27,515 bases of DNA, from the NCBI GenBank assembly GCA_038062155.1, contig JBBTXU010000006.1:1-27515 (forward strand), in the 5' to 3' direction. The stretch comes from Patescibacteria group bacterium (lineage in GTDB: Bacteria; Patescibacteriota; Minisyncoccia; Phycocordibacterales; JAGLPS01). The position numbers were made by a program, and so were the translations under genes. The notes under the pieces were generated by a model, which ran no database searches, was not told the DNA's origin, and saw nothing but the letters and a program-made list of their open reading frames with translations. Below are positions 772 through 26,504 of the stretch, piece by piece. Numbering within the stretch: the stretch's first letter is position 1; each line of letters starts with the position of its first letter.

Positions 772-2730
772 ATGGATACTTCTCACCTAAATCTTCTTAA
801 TGAGCAACAAAAGGAAGCGGTTCTCATGATGGAAGGACCGCTTCTTATCCTCGCCGGAGCAGGGTCGGGAAAAACAAAGACGATTACAACCAGAATTCTC
901 CATCTCATTAAAGCGGGAATTGACCCTTCTTCAATACTGGCAATCACCTTTACCAATAAAGCGGCTAAAGAGATGCGAGAAAGGGTAATGAGAGCAGTAG
1001 AAGAGGACAAGTCTCTTAATTTCCCCGTGTCGTTCCGCGAACGACCGTTTGTGAGTACGTTTCACTACCTCGGGGTCCACGTCATAAAGGAAAATCACGC
1101 TTTATTAGGACTTCCTCGTCACTTTAAAATATTTGATGCGGGAGATTCGCGCCGGGCAGTACGGGAAGCGATTGAAGCAGCCGGTTGGAGTGGCAAGGAA
1201 ATGGATTCTGGGAAAATAGCGAACAGTATTTCTCGAGAAAAAGGAGAAGGAAAGACATTGGAGCAATATGTAGAGAGAGAAAAGGGAGGGTTTTACGAAG
1301 AAGTGATTCAAAAAGTCTGGCCTCACTATGAAAGAATCCTTCGTGAAGAAAAAGGTCTTGATTTCGACGACTTACTTCTCAAGTCGCTCTCGCTTTTAAG
1401 ACGTCCTGAAATAGGAGAGCGCTACCGAAACATCTGGAAGTATATTCATGTTGACGAGTATCAGGATACAAACGGCGTCCAGTATTCCATGACTCGTCTC
1501 CTGACGGGAGAACGGCACAACATTTGTGTTGTGGGCGATATCGACCAGAATATCTATACCTGGAGAGGCGCGCGGCTTGAACACATGTTTCAATTTGAAC
1601 GCGACTATCCGGAGGCAAAAATCATAGTCCTTGAAGAGAATTATCGCTCAAGCAAAACTATTCTCTCGGCGGCAAACACGATTATAGAAAAAAACACTCT
1701 TCGGAAAGAAAAGAACTTGTTCACAAAAAATGACGAGGGAGAAAAAATCTCCGTGTTCAAAGCGGATAATGAGCGCGACGAAGCGGTCTTTGTAGCCACC
1801 CGCACGGAAGCACTCATCAAACGGGGTACCCCACCGCAGGAAATTGCGGTCCTCTACCGAGCAAACTTTCAGTCTCGAGCGCTTGAAGAAGTGTTTCTTT
1901 CGCGCGGGATTCCGTATCAGCTCCTTGGGGTAAAGTTTTTTGAGCGCAAAGAAATCAAAGATGCTCTCTCTTTTGTCCGACTCGCGCTTGACCCTGAGAG
2001 CGTGAGCGACTTAAAGCGAGTTATTAATGTCCCTGCCCGCGGTATTGGAAAAATAACGCTACTTAAAATTGTTGAGAAAAAAGAATCGACTCTCTCGCCA
2101 AAAATCCAAGCAAAAATTGAGGAATTTAGGAAGATTATTACCGATATGCGCGGGGCTTTTTTAGCTCTTCCTCCCTCGCAAGCAGTGCTTTTCCTTATTG
2201 AGCACACAGGACTTAAACGACTCTATGAAAAAGGGGAAGAGAAAGATGATGAGAAATTGGAAAACCTTAAAGAGCTGGTATCGTTTGCTACGCGCTACGA
2301 CAATCTAGCCCCGCAGGAGGGAATAGAACTTCTACTTGCGGACGCAGCATTGACGACAGATCAAGACAATCTCGAAGTAAAAAATAATTCTGTTAAGCTT
2401 ATGACAGTGCACGCCTCCAAAGGCCTTGAATTTGACTGTGTGTTTATTTCTGGACTCGAGGAAGGATTATTCCCTCATGAGGGGGACGAAGGAGCAAGTC
2501 AGGAAGAGGTGGAGGAAGAAAGGAGGTTGTTTTATGTTGCTCTCACTCGCGCCCGAAAAAAAGTATTCCTTTCCTGGGCCGAAACACGAATGATTTTCGG
2601 CACAACATCCGTCTCTGCCCCTTCTCAATTCATCACTGATATTGAAGCAAAATATATCGAAAATGAGGTGTGGTCGACAGACGAGAAGAGGAGGCGAGGG
2701 ATTGAAGCTATTTTATCAATTGATTTCTAA
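772..2730 (+). CDS. pcrA: UvrD/PcrA-family SF1A ATP-dependent DNA helicase
   Basis: Motif I LAGAGSGKT, AITFTNKAA, motif II VDEYQDTN, VGDIDQNIYTWRGA, LEENYRS, LMTVHASKGLEF, EEERRLFYVALTRA. Confidence 0.97.
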   Translation: MDTSHLNLLNEQQKEAVLMMEGPLLILAGAGSGKTKTITTRILHLIKAGIDPSSILAITFTNKAAKEMRERVMRAVEEDKSLNFPVSFRERPFVSTFHYLGVHVIKENHALLGLPRHFKIFDAGDSRRAVREAIEAAGWSGKEMDSGKIANSISREKGEGKTLEQYVEREKGGFYEEVIQKVWPHYERILREEKGLDFDDLLLKSLSLLRRPEIGERYRNIWKYIHVDEYQDTNGVQYSMTRLLTGERHNICVVGDIDQNIYTWRGARLEHMFQFERDYPEAKIIVLEENYRSSKTILSAANTIIEKNTLRKEKNLFTKNDEGEKISVFKADNERDEAVFVATRTEALIKRGTPPQEIAVLYRANFQSRALEEVFLSRGIPYQLLGVKFFERKEIKDALSFVRLALDPESVSDLKRVINVPARGIGKITLLKIVEKKESTLSPKIQAKIEEFRKIITDMRGAFLALPPSQAVLFLIEHTGLKRLYEKGEEKDDEKLENLKELVSFATRYDNLAPQEGIELLLADAALTTDQDNLEVKNNSVKLMTVHASKGLEFDCVFISGLEEGLFPHEGDEGASQEEVEEERRLFYVALTRARKKVFLSWAETRMIFGTTSVSAPSQFITDIEAKYIENEVWSTDEKRRRGIEAILSIDF

Positions 2731-2737
2731 TTACTTG

Positions 2738-2850
2738 TCCCGTTAGAAACTGCGGTCACAACAATTACATTATGAGGAAAGAAAGCCGATTATCTCTTTA
2801 CAAGAAAAATAAGTTCGGGACGGGAAAACCGCGAATTGTTTCTAATGGGA
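2738..2850. repeat. 113-bp element with 13-bp terminal inverted repeats (MITE/REP-like)
   Basis: TCCCGTTAGAAAC (2738-2750) pairs with GTTTCTAATGGGA (2838-2850): 12 Watson-Crick pairs plus 1 G:U. Inner arms TGCGGT/ACCGCG also pair. The last base is the A of the likely rsmA ATG. Confidence 0.65.
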
Positions 2851-22446: not shown

Positions 22447-22941
22447 TTAGGAGGTTTTCTTGCGAGAGATAAGGTGAGTAAGGCCCACCGCAATCGCATC
22501 ATACTCATCATCGTGCTCTATCTCCTTTTCTATACTAACGAGTTTTCCTAGCATAAATTCTATCTGGCGTTTATCGCTTCCCCCATGGCTGGTTACCGCG
22601 ATTTTTACCGCTGAAGGCACGTACTCAAATACAAGGAGCCCCAGGCGCGAAACTATCGAAAGCACCGCCCCCCGTGCTTCAGCAACAAGAATCGCAGTTT
22701 TTCTATTTTTCCCAAAAAACAAAGACTCTATCGCGCACACATTCGGCTTCCACTCCTTCACGCACGCTTCAACCGCTCGTGAGAGTATTGCCAAGCGCTC
22801 GCTGTGGGGAATTTTTGGTGAAGTTTTTATACAATCCGAAAATAGGACAATTTCTCTCCCATCTTTTTTTTCAAGTACGGCAATACCCATCCGCTCGTAG
22901 CCCGGGTCAATCGCAAGCACCCGCGTATCTTTATTCAACAT
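22447..22941 (-). CDS. ruvC: Holliday junction resolvase RuvC
   Basis: RVLAIDPGYERMG, AIESLFF, AEARG, YVPSAVKIAVTSHGGSDKRQI, HDDEYDAIAVGLTH (catalytic acidic residues present); start trimmed to ATG 22941. Confidence 0.95.
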   Translation of the reverse strand: MLNKDTRVLAIDPGYERMGIAVLEKKDGREIVLFSDCIKTSPKIPHSERLAILSRAVEACVKEWKPNVCAIESLFFGKNRKTAILVAEARGAVLSIVSRLGLLVFEYVPSAVKIAVTSHGGSDKRQIEFMLGKLVSIEKEIEHDDEYDAIAVGLTHLISRKKTS

Positions 22942-23461
22942 TCGTGTAGACGTCTTGGATATCTTCATGTGCTTCAAGTTGTTCAACAAGTGTTCCGAGC
23001 ACTTCCGTATCAGTGTCGGAAAGCGCCACCGTACTTTTAGGCACCCACCCACCTGCCGCCTTTTCAAATGCCCACGTCGCCGCTCCGCTTCCCGCAAGAG
23101 AGAAGCCGAGCTCGGAGAGTATGTGCCTGATTTCCGCCGCAGTTTTGTTTCTGTTTGAAGTCAGCCCCTCAATCACAATCGCGCATCCGCCCGGCCCGTA
23201 TGTCTCATATGTCACCACATCAACCGCTTCGCCCCCCGCATCTTTCGCTTTTTTTATCGCACGCTCAATATTGTCACTAGGCATATTTGCCGCACGCGCT
23301 TTTTCAATCGCTGCTCGCAGCCCTGGCGCTTCCATATTTCCATTCGCATTCTTTGCCTCGACAGTAATAAGCCGTATGACCTTTGAAAAAATCCGGCTTT
23401 TTTGAGCGTCTGTTGTCGCCTTTTTATTTTTTATTTGTTTCCACTTGCTGTGTCCTGCCAT
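22931..23461 (-). CDS. yebC: YebC/PmpR-family protein, shortened form
   Basis: MAGHSKWKQIKNKK, NMPSDNIERAIKKA, YETYGPGGCAIVIEGLTSNRNKT, LEAHEDIQDVYTN; 176 aa. Confidence 0.95.
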   Translation of the reverse strand: MAGHSKWKQIKNKKATTDAQKSRIFSKVIRLITVEAKNANGNMEAPGLRAAIEKARAANMPSDNIERAIKKAKDAGGEAVDVVTYETYGPGGCAIVIEGLTSNRNKTAAEIRHILSELGFSLAGSGAATWAFEKAAGGWVPKSTVALSDTDTEVLGTLVEQLEAHEDIQDVYTNVE

Positions 23462-23464
23462 ATA

Positions 23465-24448
23465 TTATTTATCTACATGCCGTTTGCCTTCGTCCGTTAT
23501 CACGCGGCCGCGCGCCGTTCGCTCTATGAATCCGATTTGCAAAAGATACGGCTCATTAAACTCTTCAATAGTTGACTCTTCTTCCGCGAGAGCTGCTGCA
23601 ATAGTATTGAGCCCCACTGGTCCTCCTCCGAATTTCTGCAATATTGTTTCAAGAATAGTGCGGTCGGCGGGTGAGAGTCCTCGTTCATCAACGCCGAGCA
23701 TTTTTAGTGCTCCATGTACGACGTCTTGTGATAAATCAACTTTATTTACTTGAGCGAAGTCTCGACAACGCTTCAAAAAGTAATTTGCGGTGCGCGGAGT
23801 AAATCTGCTTCTTAGCGCAATCTCATGTATGGCGTCTTCACTTATAGAAACTCCAAGCACGCGTGCCGAGCGCCTGACAATGCTTTCAATTTCTTCTGGG
23901 CTATAGAATTCTAGTCTGAAAATTCCTCCGGAAAAACGGCTTCGCAGGGGCGATGAGATAAGAGCGATGCGAGTTGTTGCCGCAATGATGCTGAATGGCG
24001 GAAGTTCAAGTTGTACCGTGCGCGCCGAAGGGCCCTTGCCGATAATGATGTCTAAAGACCCTGACTCCATGGCAGGATAGAGTACCTCCTCAATTGTTTT
24101 ATTGAGCCGGTGTATTTCATCTATGAAAAGAATGTCTCCTGGCGAGAGATTGGTCAAAATCGAAGCTAAATCCGCCACTCGCTCGATTGCGGGACCGGAA
24201 GTTGCCTTCATTTGCGCGCCCGTTTCCTTTGCGATAAGATGTGCGAGCGTCGTTTTACCCAGCCCCGGCGGTCCATAAAAGAGGACATGCTCGGGGGTAT
24301 GGCCTCGCTCTTTGGCAGCTGTTAGGAGAACACGCAGGTTTTCCTTGATACTTTGCTGTCCTACGTATTCATCCCAAGTAGCAGGCCGCAGTGTCGCATC
24401 AAATGAAGCGTCGCTGTCAGTTGATGGGTTAGAGGGTGCTCTTGACAT
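23465..24448 (-). CDS. ruvB: Holliday junction branch-migration ATPase RuvB
   Basis: LRPATWDEYVGQ, HVLFYGPPGLGKTTLA, TSGP, LFIDEIHRL, LYPAMES, ATTR, SRFTPRTAN, EPYLLQIGFIERTARGR. Confidence 0.98.
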   Translation of the reverse strand: MSRAPSNPSTDSDASFDATLRPATWDEYVGQQSIKENLRVLLTAAKERGHTPEHVLFYGPPGLGKTTLAHLIAKETGAQMKATSGPAIERVADLASILTNLSPGDILFIDEIHRLNKTIEEVLYPAMESGSLDIIIGKGPSARTVQLELPPFSIIAATTRIALISSPLRSRFSGGIFRLEFYSPEEIESIVRRSARVLGVSISEDAIHEIALRSRFTPRTANYFLKRCRDFAQVNKVDLSQDVVHGALKMLGVDERGLSPADRTILETILQKFGGGPVGLNTIAAALAEEESTIEEFNEPYLLQIGFIERTARGRVITDEGKRHVDK

Positions 24449-24470
24449 GTTAATCTTTTTATGCTACGAT
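24442..24470 (+). promoter_or_regulatory. Near-consensus sigma70 promoter driving the structured RNA
   Basis: TTGACA (24442-24447), 17-nt spacer, TG-c-TACGAT (24462-24470); predicted TSS about 24476-24478. The -35 overlaps the ruvB start codon on the opposite strand. Confidence 0.7.
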
Positions 24471-24476
24471 TTTCCG

Positions 24477-24690
24477 TAGAGGTGAATCGTCGCAATTCTT
24501 TATTCCAACATACAAATCTCTAAGCAACGGAGCCCTTCGGGGCTTTCTAGAATTTCTTTGAGGATGTCGTGGCTTCGGCTGAGGCTCTCCTTGAAAGAAC
24601 TACTTAGCTTTTGATACGCCTATTAAAAGTGTTGCTTGGAGATTTGTGTTTTGGAATCTTTCTCAATTCTAGTACGTATTGATTTCTCCG
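24477..24690 (+). ncRNA. Putative structured ncRNA (6S-like outline, four-way junction head); family unknown
   Basis: 27-bp stem 24502-24528/24631-24657; hairpins 24531-24544 (cUUCGg), 24554-24599 (cUUCGg) and 24608-24629; G:U pairs consistently favour the plus strand; upstream promoter; no ORF of 60 aa or more. Folded by hand. Confidence 0.6.
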
Positions 24691-24753
24691 CAAGATTGAC
24701 GGGCAAACAACTTCAATCTGCTGTTTCGCTGTCAAAACAGGAAAGGTTTTTAT

Positions 24754-24791
24754 TGTACTAGTACAGTGAGTGAAGTGAACATGTTCACTTC
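24754..24791. promoter_or_regulatory. Two adjacent perfect palindromes (operator- or terminator-like)
   Basis: TGTACTAGTACA (24754-24765) and GAAGTGAACATGTTCACTTC (24772-24791). Confidence 0.45.
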
Positions 24792-24824
24792 TAAACGAGA
24801 CGACAAGAAGAGGCTTGATAACTC

Positions 24825-26504
24825 TTATTCGTAGTCAACATCTACAACACGCTTGAGCTCCTCGAGCGAGGTGATGCCCGTGAGCACTTTTAAGACGCCG
24901 TCTTGTCGGATGGAGAGCAAATCTTGATGTTCTGCCGCTTTTTTGATTTCCCGCTCGCTTGGATTCTCTCGCACCACGCGCTCAATCTCTTCGTCGGTTA
25001 CGATTGCTTCAAAGATGCCGACTCGCCCTTTGAAGCCCGTAAAATTGCATTTCTCGCATCCCTGATGCTCCCATACCGTTTCTTTTTGAATACCTTTTAT
25101 ATAACTTTTGTCTCTAATGCTCCCGAGTACGTCTTCAACAAGCTTTTTCTCTTCTCCCACAAGCGTCACCGCTTTTCTGCAGGTAGTGCAGAGCTTGCGC
25201 ACGAGTCTTTGGGCCATTGATATCGCGATTGAGGAGGTGAGGACCTTTGGATTTGCTCCCAAATCAATTAGTCTTGGATACGCTCCAGCCGCATTGTTCG
25301 TATGCAGTGTTGAAAATACGAGGTGGCCGGTCAAGGATGAGTTAATGGCAATCTCCGCGGTCTCTCGGTCTCTGATTTCTCCCACCATGATGACATCAGG
25401 GTCTTGTCGAAGGGCACTGCGTAGTCCTTCCAAAAAGGTGTAGCCTTTTTCGGTATCTGTCTGCGTCTGCACAATGCCTGGAATGTGATACTCAATCGGA
25501 TTTTCAATTGTAATAATTTTTATTTGGGGCGTGTGCACTTTCTTTAAGAAGGCATACAAAGTTGTCGTTTTGCCCGACCCAGTAGGGCCTGTGGTTAAAA
25601 TCATGCCGTTGGGCTTTTTAATTTCGTGGTCAAGGATGGCAAGAAGCCGCGGGTGGATGCCGAGCTCTTCTAATGGCACCGCAATGCTCTTAGGATTGAG
25701 CACGCGCAGCACAACCGCTTCATTGTATGCTCCAGGGAGAACGGAGGTTCTCACTTCAATATCCTCTATTCCCATTTTTATGGTGAAGCGTCCGTCCTGT
25801 GCGGTTTTTTTAATATTAAGTTTGAGGCCTGATATAAGTTTCACTCGCGAGAGAAGAAGCCCGAATGTTTCGTGGTCAAAGGTAAGAATATCAACGAGCA
25901 CTCCGTCTAAACGATAGCGCAGACGCACATACGTTTCCTCGGCCTCCAAGTGCACATCGGACGCTTTCGTAGCGAGTGCTCCCGCGAGAATAATTTCAAG
26001 AATTCTGGAAATTCGAAATCCTTTTTTCATCGCCAAGACATTTTCAATGAGGCCTTTGACGTCTTGGATATGCTTGACGCTCTTCACTGCTTCAAGAATT
26101 TCTTCATTGGAAATATCAAGCGCCCCCCCTTTCGTTTCAAATGAGTACGAGAGGTCCTTGTATCGCTCCCACGTACTCTCCAAACTCCGTGAAGAAACCA
26201 AAAACACTTCAGGGCGATATCCGCGGTCCGTGAGCTCTTGGAGCGCCTCTTTTGTTACAGAGAGCGATGGAGACTGCACTGCGACACTTATGTTTTTATC
26301 TATGATGTTAAATACCGTAAGTTTCGCCATGCGCGCTTTTTCCTGTGTGATGACGCGCAGGGCATCGCGGTTTATGGGAGCATTGGTGAGGTCAAGATAG
26401 GGGAGGCCGTACTTTTTTGAAAGAATTTCGGTCAACTGTTCTTCCTCGTCGCGGCGCAAGTCGCGCACGCGTTTCTCCTGACGCTCTTCATTGAATTGCA
26501 CCAT
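24825..26504 (-). CDS. pilB: PilB/GspE-family type IV pilus assembly ATPase
   Basis: ASDVHLE, RLRYRLDG, AQDGRF, RTSVLP, Walker A LTTGPTGSGKTT, LRQDPDVIMVGEIRD, GHLVFSTLHTN, AQRLVRKLCTTC...GCEKC...GFKGRVGIFE. Start set at ATG 26504 (MVQFNEE), which has TACTAT 6 nt upstream. Confidence 0.92.
   Translation of the reverse strand: MVQFNEERQEKRVRDLRRDEEEQLTEILSKKYGLPYLDLTNAPINRDALRVITQEKARMAKLTVFNIIDKNISVAVQSPSLSVTKEALQELTDRGYRPEVFLVSSRSLESTWERYKDLSYSFETKGGALDISNEEILEAVKSVKHIQDVKGLIENVLAMKKGFRISRILEIILAGALATKASDVHLEAEETYVRLRYRLDGVLVDILTFDHETFGLLLSRVKLISGLKLNIKKTAQDGRFTIKMGIEDIEVRTSVLPGAYNEAVVLRVLNPKSIAVPLEELGIHPRLLAILDHEIKKPNGMILTTGPTGSGKTTTLYAFLKKVHTPQIKIITIENPIEYHIPGIVQTQTDTEKGYTFLEGLRSALRQDPDVIMVGEIRDRETAEIAINSSLTGHLVFSTLHTNNAAGAYPRLIDLGANPKVLTSSIAISMAQRLVRKLCTTCRKAVTLVGEEKKLVEDVLGSIRDKSYIKGIQKETVWEHQGCEKCNFTGFKGRVGIFEAIVTDEEIERVVRENPSEREIKKAAEHQDLLSIRQDGVLKVLTGITSLEELKRVVDVDYE

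Follow-up and report, generated by a model that had tools for sequence, protein, structure and literature searches.

A structured RNA gene between pilB and ruvB in a Patescibacteria genome, distinct from the separate 6S-like RNA of its order

The window analysed here is the whole stretch of 27,515 nt that corresponds to positions 1 to 27,515 of the forward strand of contig JBBTXU010000006.1 (assembly GCA_038062155.1, from a Patescibacteria group bacterium). It is contig 6 of a 0.52 Mb genome in 57 contigs that is 89% complete, hereafter designated G000, whose closest named relatives are the Minisyncoccia/Parcubacteria lineages Zambryskibacteria, Nomurabacteria, Kaiserbacteria and Ryanbacteria. 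The gap between the genes pilB and ruvB contains, on the plus strand, a gene for an RNA of about 165 nt (range about 165-190 nt) that folds as a four-way junction, and which we name X. From its sequence, X is predicted to be read from the plus strand off a consensus sigma-70 promoter with an extended -10 element; the RNA belongs to an uncatalogued family and is most probably a stable, protein-binding RNA. With moderate confidence, we consider that X is the gene of a trans-acting and probably highly expressed stable RNA, representing a new family of Paceibacteria (Parcubacteria-type members of the candidate phyla radiation, CPR), whose promoter would be antagonistic to ruvB.

The gap that contains X is 376 bp long and extends from the ruvB start codon (ATG at 24448-24446, on the minus strand) to the stop codon of the pilB/T2SSE ATPase gene (minus strand, 24825). 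The promoter TTGACA-N17-TGcTACGAT pointing into this gap, the long closing stem and the three hairpins of the junction, all of them described in an initial annotation made from the letters of the window, are present as described (Table 1). Among the 27 positions of the closing stem there are 24 Watson-Crick pairs and two G:U pairs, in agreement with that description, together with a single mismatch, which is a C:U at 24509/24650. The linkers of the junction are only ~1-7 nt long. Hairpin H2 contains two invariant helices, AGGA/UCCU and UGG/CUG, the latter with tandem U:G and G:U pairs, and its tip, capped by a tetraloop, is variable in length and 13-20 nt longer in most relatives. Overall, the loops of X are variable and the core of the closing stem, the helices of H2 and the CUUUU/AAAAG segments of H3 are invariant.

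The polarity of the RNA is indicated by its G:U pairs. The invariant U:G and G:U pairs of H2 and the frequent G:U pairs of H1 and H3 place X on the plus strand; we counted ten of them in the window's copy, where at least seven had been claimed, and each corresponds to an A:C on the opposite strand. Likewise, the predicted folding energy is -129.1 kcal/mol (z -8.4) for the plus strand versus -99.4 kcal/mol (z -4.9) for the minus strand, and with the covariance model the plus strand of the window reaches 159.8 bits and the minus strand 59.9 bits, with similar results in every locus. An additional outer pairing between 24479-24488 and 24681-24688, also put forward initially, is not supported, as conservation of these flanks is already lost within the family and its four genomes.

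Table 1. Coordinates of the promoter and structural elements of X in the window
Feature	Position	Strand	Description
Promoter	24442-24470	+	-35 box TTGACA at 24442-24447, 17-nt spacer, extended -10 TGcTACGAT at 24462-24470
Predicted 5' leader, ~25 nt	24477-24501	+	From the start to the closing stem; not conserved
Closing stem, 5' arm	24502-24528	+	Core AAAUCUCUAAGCAA, almost invariant in the order
Hairpin H1	24530-24545	+	AGCCC-UUCG-GGGCU; 5-6 bp, UUCG loop
Long hairpin H2	~24554-24599	+	cUUCGg cap
Hairpin H3	24607-24630	+	9 bp, A/U- and G:U-rich, CUUUUGAUA/UAUUAAAAG; loop variable
Closing stem, 3' arm	24631-24657	+	Pairs with 24502-24528
U-rich 3' tail	24658-24675	+	AUCUUUCUCAAUUCU; degenerate in the window genome

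X is a single-copy sequence in its own genome. BLAST searches identified it in all four genomes of its family and, at the level of the order, in 61 of 401 genomes. R1, a covariance model derived from 27 sequences, detected it in 137 of 151 genomes from the order, comprising 120 of the 133 high-quality genomes and 119 of 131 genera, as well as in 27 more genomes from other orders of the class. A broader model of X (R2) gave essentially no match in ~143 genomes from other classes of the phylum except one, of 38.6 bits (genome G569, L193:1490-1660); this locus has neither pilB nor ruvB next to it and probably bears no relation to X. What lies at this position is another intergenic sequence, which also has a long closing stem (CCCGCUUUAGCGACCUGCA/UGCAGGCCACUAAAACGGG) and may be a further structured RNA.

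Covariation was evaluated with 63 sequences aligned to the covariance model of X. In this alignment, 94.6% of the cells are paired and 45 of the 54 pairs are compensatory, that is, changed on both sides. The covariation score was 0.436, compared to 0.198 for shuffled alignments (none of 500 reached the observed value) and to 0.07-0.11 when the pairing partners were slid. Compensatory changes were found in 24 of the 25 modelled pairs of the closing stem, in all five pairs of H1, whose sequence varies, and in six of the nine pairs of H3, where 97.7% of the cells are paired. In distant members, the sequence of the closing stem is altered and its pairing is kept, so the stem sequence is invariant in the order but not in the class as a whole. 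Compensatory changes maintain the fold of X across more than 100 families. Covariation and syntenic homologs, with the order pilB-X-ruvB kept, were what the initial annotation had proposed to look for in support of an RNA gene, and both were found.

The same data bear on the proposal that X is not an RNA and is instead a miniature inverted-repeat transposable element (MITE), or some other inverted repeat acting at the DNA level. This was prompted by the 27-bp inverted ends and by the sequence TCTTT beside each arm of the stem, initially read as possible target-site duplications. Nevertheless, X occurs once in its own genome, is absent from phage records and is found at one and the same position in over 160 genomes; besides, neither the strand-specific G:U pairs, nor the compensatory changes in all helices, nor the conserved promoter fit a transposable element. 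Copy number and synteny thus refute a MITE origin, to which we assign a next to negligible probability, and show that the TCTTT flanks are not target-site duplications.

Transcription signals point in the same direction as the fold. The promoter of X scores 10/12 and has an extended -10, and shuffled sequences yield 0.6 such sites; the predicted start of transcription is at ~24477. A TTGAC-N(17±1)-TAnnnT motif is present within 150 nt 5' of the closing stem in 56 of the 63 homologs, being preceded by TG/TA at the -10 in 54 of these 56, and appears on the opposite strand of the same stretch in only one of the 63. Among relatives, 3 to 113 nt separate the -10 box and the closing stem, the leader being variable. 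At the other end, most relatives have a U-run, which either follows the stem directly or comes after a separate GC hairpin 10-40 nt further downstream. Taken together, the promoter, the 3' signals in relatives and the covariation indicate that X is an independent gene for a structured small RNA.

No family of Rfam 15 matched X, either at the gathering threshold in the window or at E <= 10 in the region 24350-24900, which fits with an undescribed non-coding RNA (ncRNA). The initial annotation had left the identity of X between a divergent 6S RNA and an undescribed ncRNA, and only the second half of this proposal was borne out: the promoter, the covariation and the lack of an Rfam match support an undescribed ncRNA, and membership in the 6S family is contradicted by the lack of a match to RF00013 and by the existence of a separate 6S RNA. 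6S RNA mimics an open promoter, and the central single-stranded bubble expected for such an RNA is not found in X. Both strands of the presumed bubble are in fact the hairpins H1 and H3, with the compensatory changes described above.

The separate RNA is located outside the window, on contig 3 of G000 (2620-2762, plus strand; L007:1498-1640), and is ~135-145 nt long. A search of G000 with RF00013 produced a single weak match (C3:2623-2753, 19.8 bits), whose alignment rests on the most conserved segments of 6S RNA, GGGAGCC... and ...GGCACCCACCU. This RNA has a promoter with the extended -10 TGcTATAAT, as well as a terminator, and its fold follows the canonical outline of 6S RNA, with a closing stem of 17 bp, a 5' bubble in which ~20 nt are left single-stranded, an internal stem, a small hairpin on the 3' side and the terminator; in the family, the bubble is 20-29 nt long. 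The consensus of 14 sequences showed compensatory changes in 17 of 32 pairs, a value reached by none of 500 shuffles. BLAST found the contig-3 RNA in 33 of the 201 genomes searched in the order; a covariance model derived from it (R3) detected a 6S-like RNA in 137 of 151, always away from the X loci. From a comparison of the lists of negatives, both RNAs are present in 127 of the 151 genomes.

The Rfam 6S model misses RNAs of the contig-3 type in the relatives of G000. This same model detects 6S RNA in 19 genomes from other classes of Patescibacteria, seven of them above the cut-off, and R3 matched all six of the RF00013-positive 6S loci that were fetched from these other classes, at the same coordinates and with E values from 3e-7 to 1e-3. 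The contig-3 RNA thus appears, from its sequence and predicted fold, to be the real, albeit divergent, 6S RNA of this genome. The existence of a separate RNA that is detected by R3 and is homologous to RF00013-positive 6S RNAs implies that X is a different RNA from 6S; the role of 6S homolog, which X had been considered for, would be filled by the contig-3 RNA in the genomes where R3 detects it.

X might nonetheless be another, aberrant RNA of the 6S type that mimics an open promoter and binds the sigma-70 RNA polymerase beside the canonical 6S, as occurs in Bacillus subtilis with 6S-1 and 6S-2. Its size of ~165-190 nt, the closing stem combined with a long internal hairpin, its own strong promoter and the possibility that H3, which is A/U- and G:U-rich, could melt are all compatible with this function. 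We consider it improbable, because no Rfam family, including RF00013, matches X at E <= 10, the strands of the putative bubble are covarying hairpins joined by very short linkers, the closing stem is a near-perfect helix of 25-27 bp, and a separate canonical 6S accompanies X in most genomes of the order. A second polymerase-binding RNA is a possible identity for X, with nothing specific favouring it at present.

Other well-known RNAs were also considered and rejected as identities for X. It did not match the RNase P RNA (RF00010), which in relatives is found elsewhere with 40-111 bits; transfer-messenger RNA (RF00023) is located at G000:C24:70-497 (110.6 bits), and ARAGORN found nothing in the window. 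A bacterial Y RNA is at odds with the distribution of its partner, as the TROVE domain (Rsr) was found in two of 101 genomes of the order versus 137 of 151 for X. A riboswitch or a cis-regulatory leader was discarded because the only gene downstream of X on the plus side, pilB, lies antisense to it. With respect to a phage or viral origin, X had no phage match, and four IMG/VR contigs shared only chance 17-mers with it, without a match to the model and without pilB or ruvB nearby.

The RNA of the signal recognition particle (SRP; RF00169 and RF01854) was likewise dismissed as an identity for X, as there was no match to its models and the partner protein Ffh was not found. Neither SRP RNA (RF00169, RF01854) nor the Ffh M domain (PF02978) nor the SRP54 GTPase domain were detected in G000 and four near-complete relatives. 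For PF00448, shared by Ffh and FtsY, there were only marginal matches of 24-26 bits, in two of 151 genomes of the class and one of 151 of the phylum. Ffh from Escherichia coli had no match in 151 Patescibacteria genomes, and a tblastn search of G000 with this protein returned nothing, whereas RpsP, TrmD and GrpE were found. Matches were obtained in all 14 control genomes. If it holds, the absence of SRP from the sampled Patescibacteria would mean, notably, that a system present almost everywhere has been lost. A literature search retrieved nothing relevant describing 6S RNA, SRP or ncRNAs in CPR bacteria.

The genomic context of X is highly conserved. The arrangement pilB-X-ruvB, with X antisense to both genes, was observed at every primary locus examined that was not interrupted by a contig end, and it persists where the identity of PilB to the protein from the window is as low as 43-55%. 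Further copies of X were found in two genomes. In G021, there is a diverged second copy situated past a small DUF1059-like open reading frame, between GAF and Mur-ligase genes, which shows compensatory changes in the closing stem but lacks the consensus promoter; its neighbors (GAF, DUF1059-like, Mur ligase, YqeY and RmuC) were uninformative. In G052, X is duplicated in tandem. The unlinked copy of G021 and the tandem duplicate of G052 are suggestive of an action in trans.

The promoter of X is also intertwined with the start of ruvB. In the window, the sequence TTGACAT at 24442-24448 is the reverse complement of ATGTCAA, the start codon of ruvB followed by TCAA (Met-Ser...), in such a way that the -35 box of X overlaps this start codon; the same overlap was found in 27 of 61 homologous loci. 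In these genomes, consequently, the 5' region of ruvB must overlap the promoter or the gene of X. There is no obvious Shine-Dalgarno sequence or own promoter for ruvB in the 53 bp that precede X, and no conserved minus-strand promoter for ruvB in X or beyond it, where we found only matches of 9-10/12 in about one third of the loci.

This context also feeds the main rival explanation, by which X would be a cis-antisense or transcriptional-interference regulator of ruvB, or of read-through from pilB to ruvB, operating by strong convergent transcription and by pairing with the complementary spacer in the pilB-ruvB transcript, so that ruvB would be uncoupled or repressed, with RNase III cutting the resulting duplex. 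The antisense position of X at every primary locus, the overlap of its -35 with the ruvB start, the presence of RNase III and a weak minus-strand promoter-like site (TTCACT-16-TACAAT, 24779-24752), which is directed at X and ruvB, are in line with such a role. Nonetheless, the structure of X, with its four-way junction, its 45 covarying pairs out of 54 and its strand-specific G:U pairs, far exceeds what antisense pairing needs, the second copy of G021 is structurally intact away from ruvB, and a minus-strand promoter 3' of X is not conserved. We thus view regulation in cis as rather unlikely to be the explanation for X, with the proviso that it could coexist with a function in trans.

Two palindromes lie downstream of X in the same gap. 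Directly past the pilB stop there is a perfect palindrome of 20 nt (GAAGTGAACATGTTCACTTC, 24773-24792) that is not followed by a U-run on either strand. The other is the short palindrome CCGCAA(G/T)ATTG(A/T), at 24690-24702 of the window and 30-80 nt 3' of X in about nine related genomes, without being general; possible readings are a binding site for a protein and a -10 box on the minus strand (TACAAT).

Under the explanation that we favor, that of a stable RNA acting in trans, the long closing stem would join both ends of the RNA and probably serve as a processing or protection stem. This is suggested by the fact that the genome encodes RNase III, at G000:C30:23235-23627, and by the varying lengths of the 5' leader and the 3' trailer. 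The invariant helical faces would most likely form a docking surface for a protein; they comprise the core of the closing stem (AAAUCUCUAAGCAA), both H2 helices (AGGA/UCCU and UGG/CUG) and H3. X would then act as a scaffold or as a decoy in an RNA-protein particle. Given the position of the -35 box on the start codon of ruvB, RNA polymerase sitting on the strong X promoter, or firing from it, should interfere with transcription of ruvB, so that the synthesis of X and that of RuvB, a Holliday-junction motor, would be coupled and antagonistic.

Several observations weigh against this explanation or do not fit in it easily. The -35 box does not overlap the ruvB start in 34 of the 61 loci, so the interference step is not universal, and a cis-antisense role would be another way to account for the invariant position of X between pilB and ruvB. 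The 3' U-tract is degenerate in the window, where no terminator was called. Moreover, many relatives contain a terminator-like, GC-rich hairpin followed by a U-run between the promoter and X (e.g., L035, L037 and L058; also L025, L028, L049, L060 and L069), which is absent from the window and for which the model offers no explanation; this hairpin could be an attenuator, a 5' stabilizer or a separate tiny transcript. Lastly, the sequencing runs that hold the X region are DNA only, with no RNA run listed, and the ends, abundance and processing of X are consequently all inferred. A scan of metagenomes recovered at least 120 contigs of 1 kb or longer, none of them usable as a transcript end.

The neighborhood of X allows for a more specific proposal, in which X would be an RNA partner or decoy of the surrounding DNA-uptake and recombination machinery (PilB; RuvB-YebC-RuvC), for example a mimic of the Holliday junction that titrates junction-binding proteins such as RuvA or RuvC, in analogy to the mimicry of an open promoter by 6S RNA, at the same time that its promoter shuts down ruvB. 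Downstream of ruvB, the gene order continues with a short yebC and then ruvC. The sole supports for this idea are the four-way shape of X, the fact that it is almost invariably linked head to head with ruvB, and the position of its -35 box over the start codon; RNA helices, being A-form, imitate a DNA junction poorly, and we hold this proposal to be very improbable. As a separate observation, the YebC/TACO1-family gene located between ruvB and ruvC (22931-23461) codes for a product of only 176 residues, the usual length being greater.

Paceibacteria/Parcubacteria are a very large uncultured group; their genomes measure 0.5-1 Mb, and selection acts on nearly every base of them. An intricately folded and probably strongly expressed RNA, kept by nearly all Paceibacteria and falling outside the universal families, would point to a piece of core cell biology that is as yet unknown. 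Locating the true 6S RNA of the lineage removes the default explanation for X and sharpens the question of which protein binds it and of why its promoter is interlocked with ruvB. In practical terms, the models R1 and R2, for X, and R3, for the divergent 6S RNA, would allow the annotation of both RNAs across CPR genomes.

X can be compared with several known systems. Comparative genomics, as in the motif surveys of Breaker and Weinberg, has uncovered orphan classes of structured ncRNAs such as raiA, OLE and the ROOL/GOLLD motifs. X resembles these classes in being a stand-alone RNA with an intricate fold and strong covariation, restricted to a lineage yet near-universal in it, with its own promoter and with no known partner or function; it differs from them in that it shares neither sequence nor structure with any family of Rfam 15, is smaller (~165-190 nt) and is fixed at one genomic position, head to head with ruvB. 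With 6S RNA (SsrS; RF00013), it has in common the length, an end-to-end closing stem, a long internal hairpin and a strong promoter of the housekeeping type, but it lacks both a match to RF00013 and a single-stranded bubble, and the same genomes contain a separate 6S RNA. Y RNAs of the Rsr/Ro60 (YrlA) type similarly possess a long conserved stem, formed by the 5' and 3' ends, that closes a multi-branched module; in contrast, TROVE proteins are rare in the order, where X is present in ~90% of the genomes, and X contains no T-loop-like motif and has no match in Rfam. Finally, the processing stems cut by RNase III in ribosomal RNA precursors are also long, near-perfect flanking helices with a variable leader and trailer, and RNase III is encoded here, whereas the stem of X is highly conserved in sequence within the order and encloses a small RNA.

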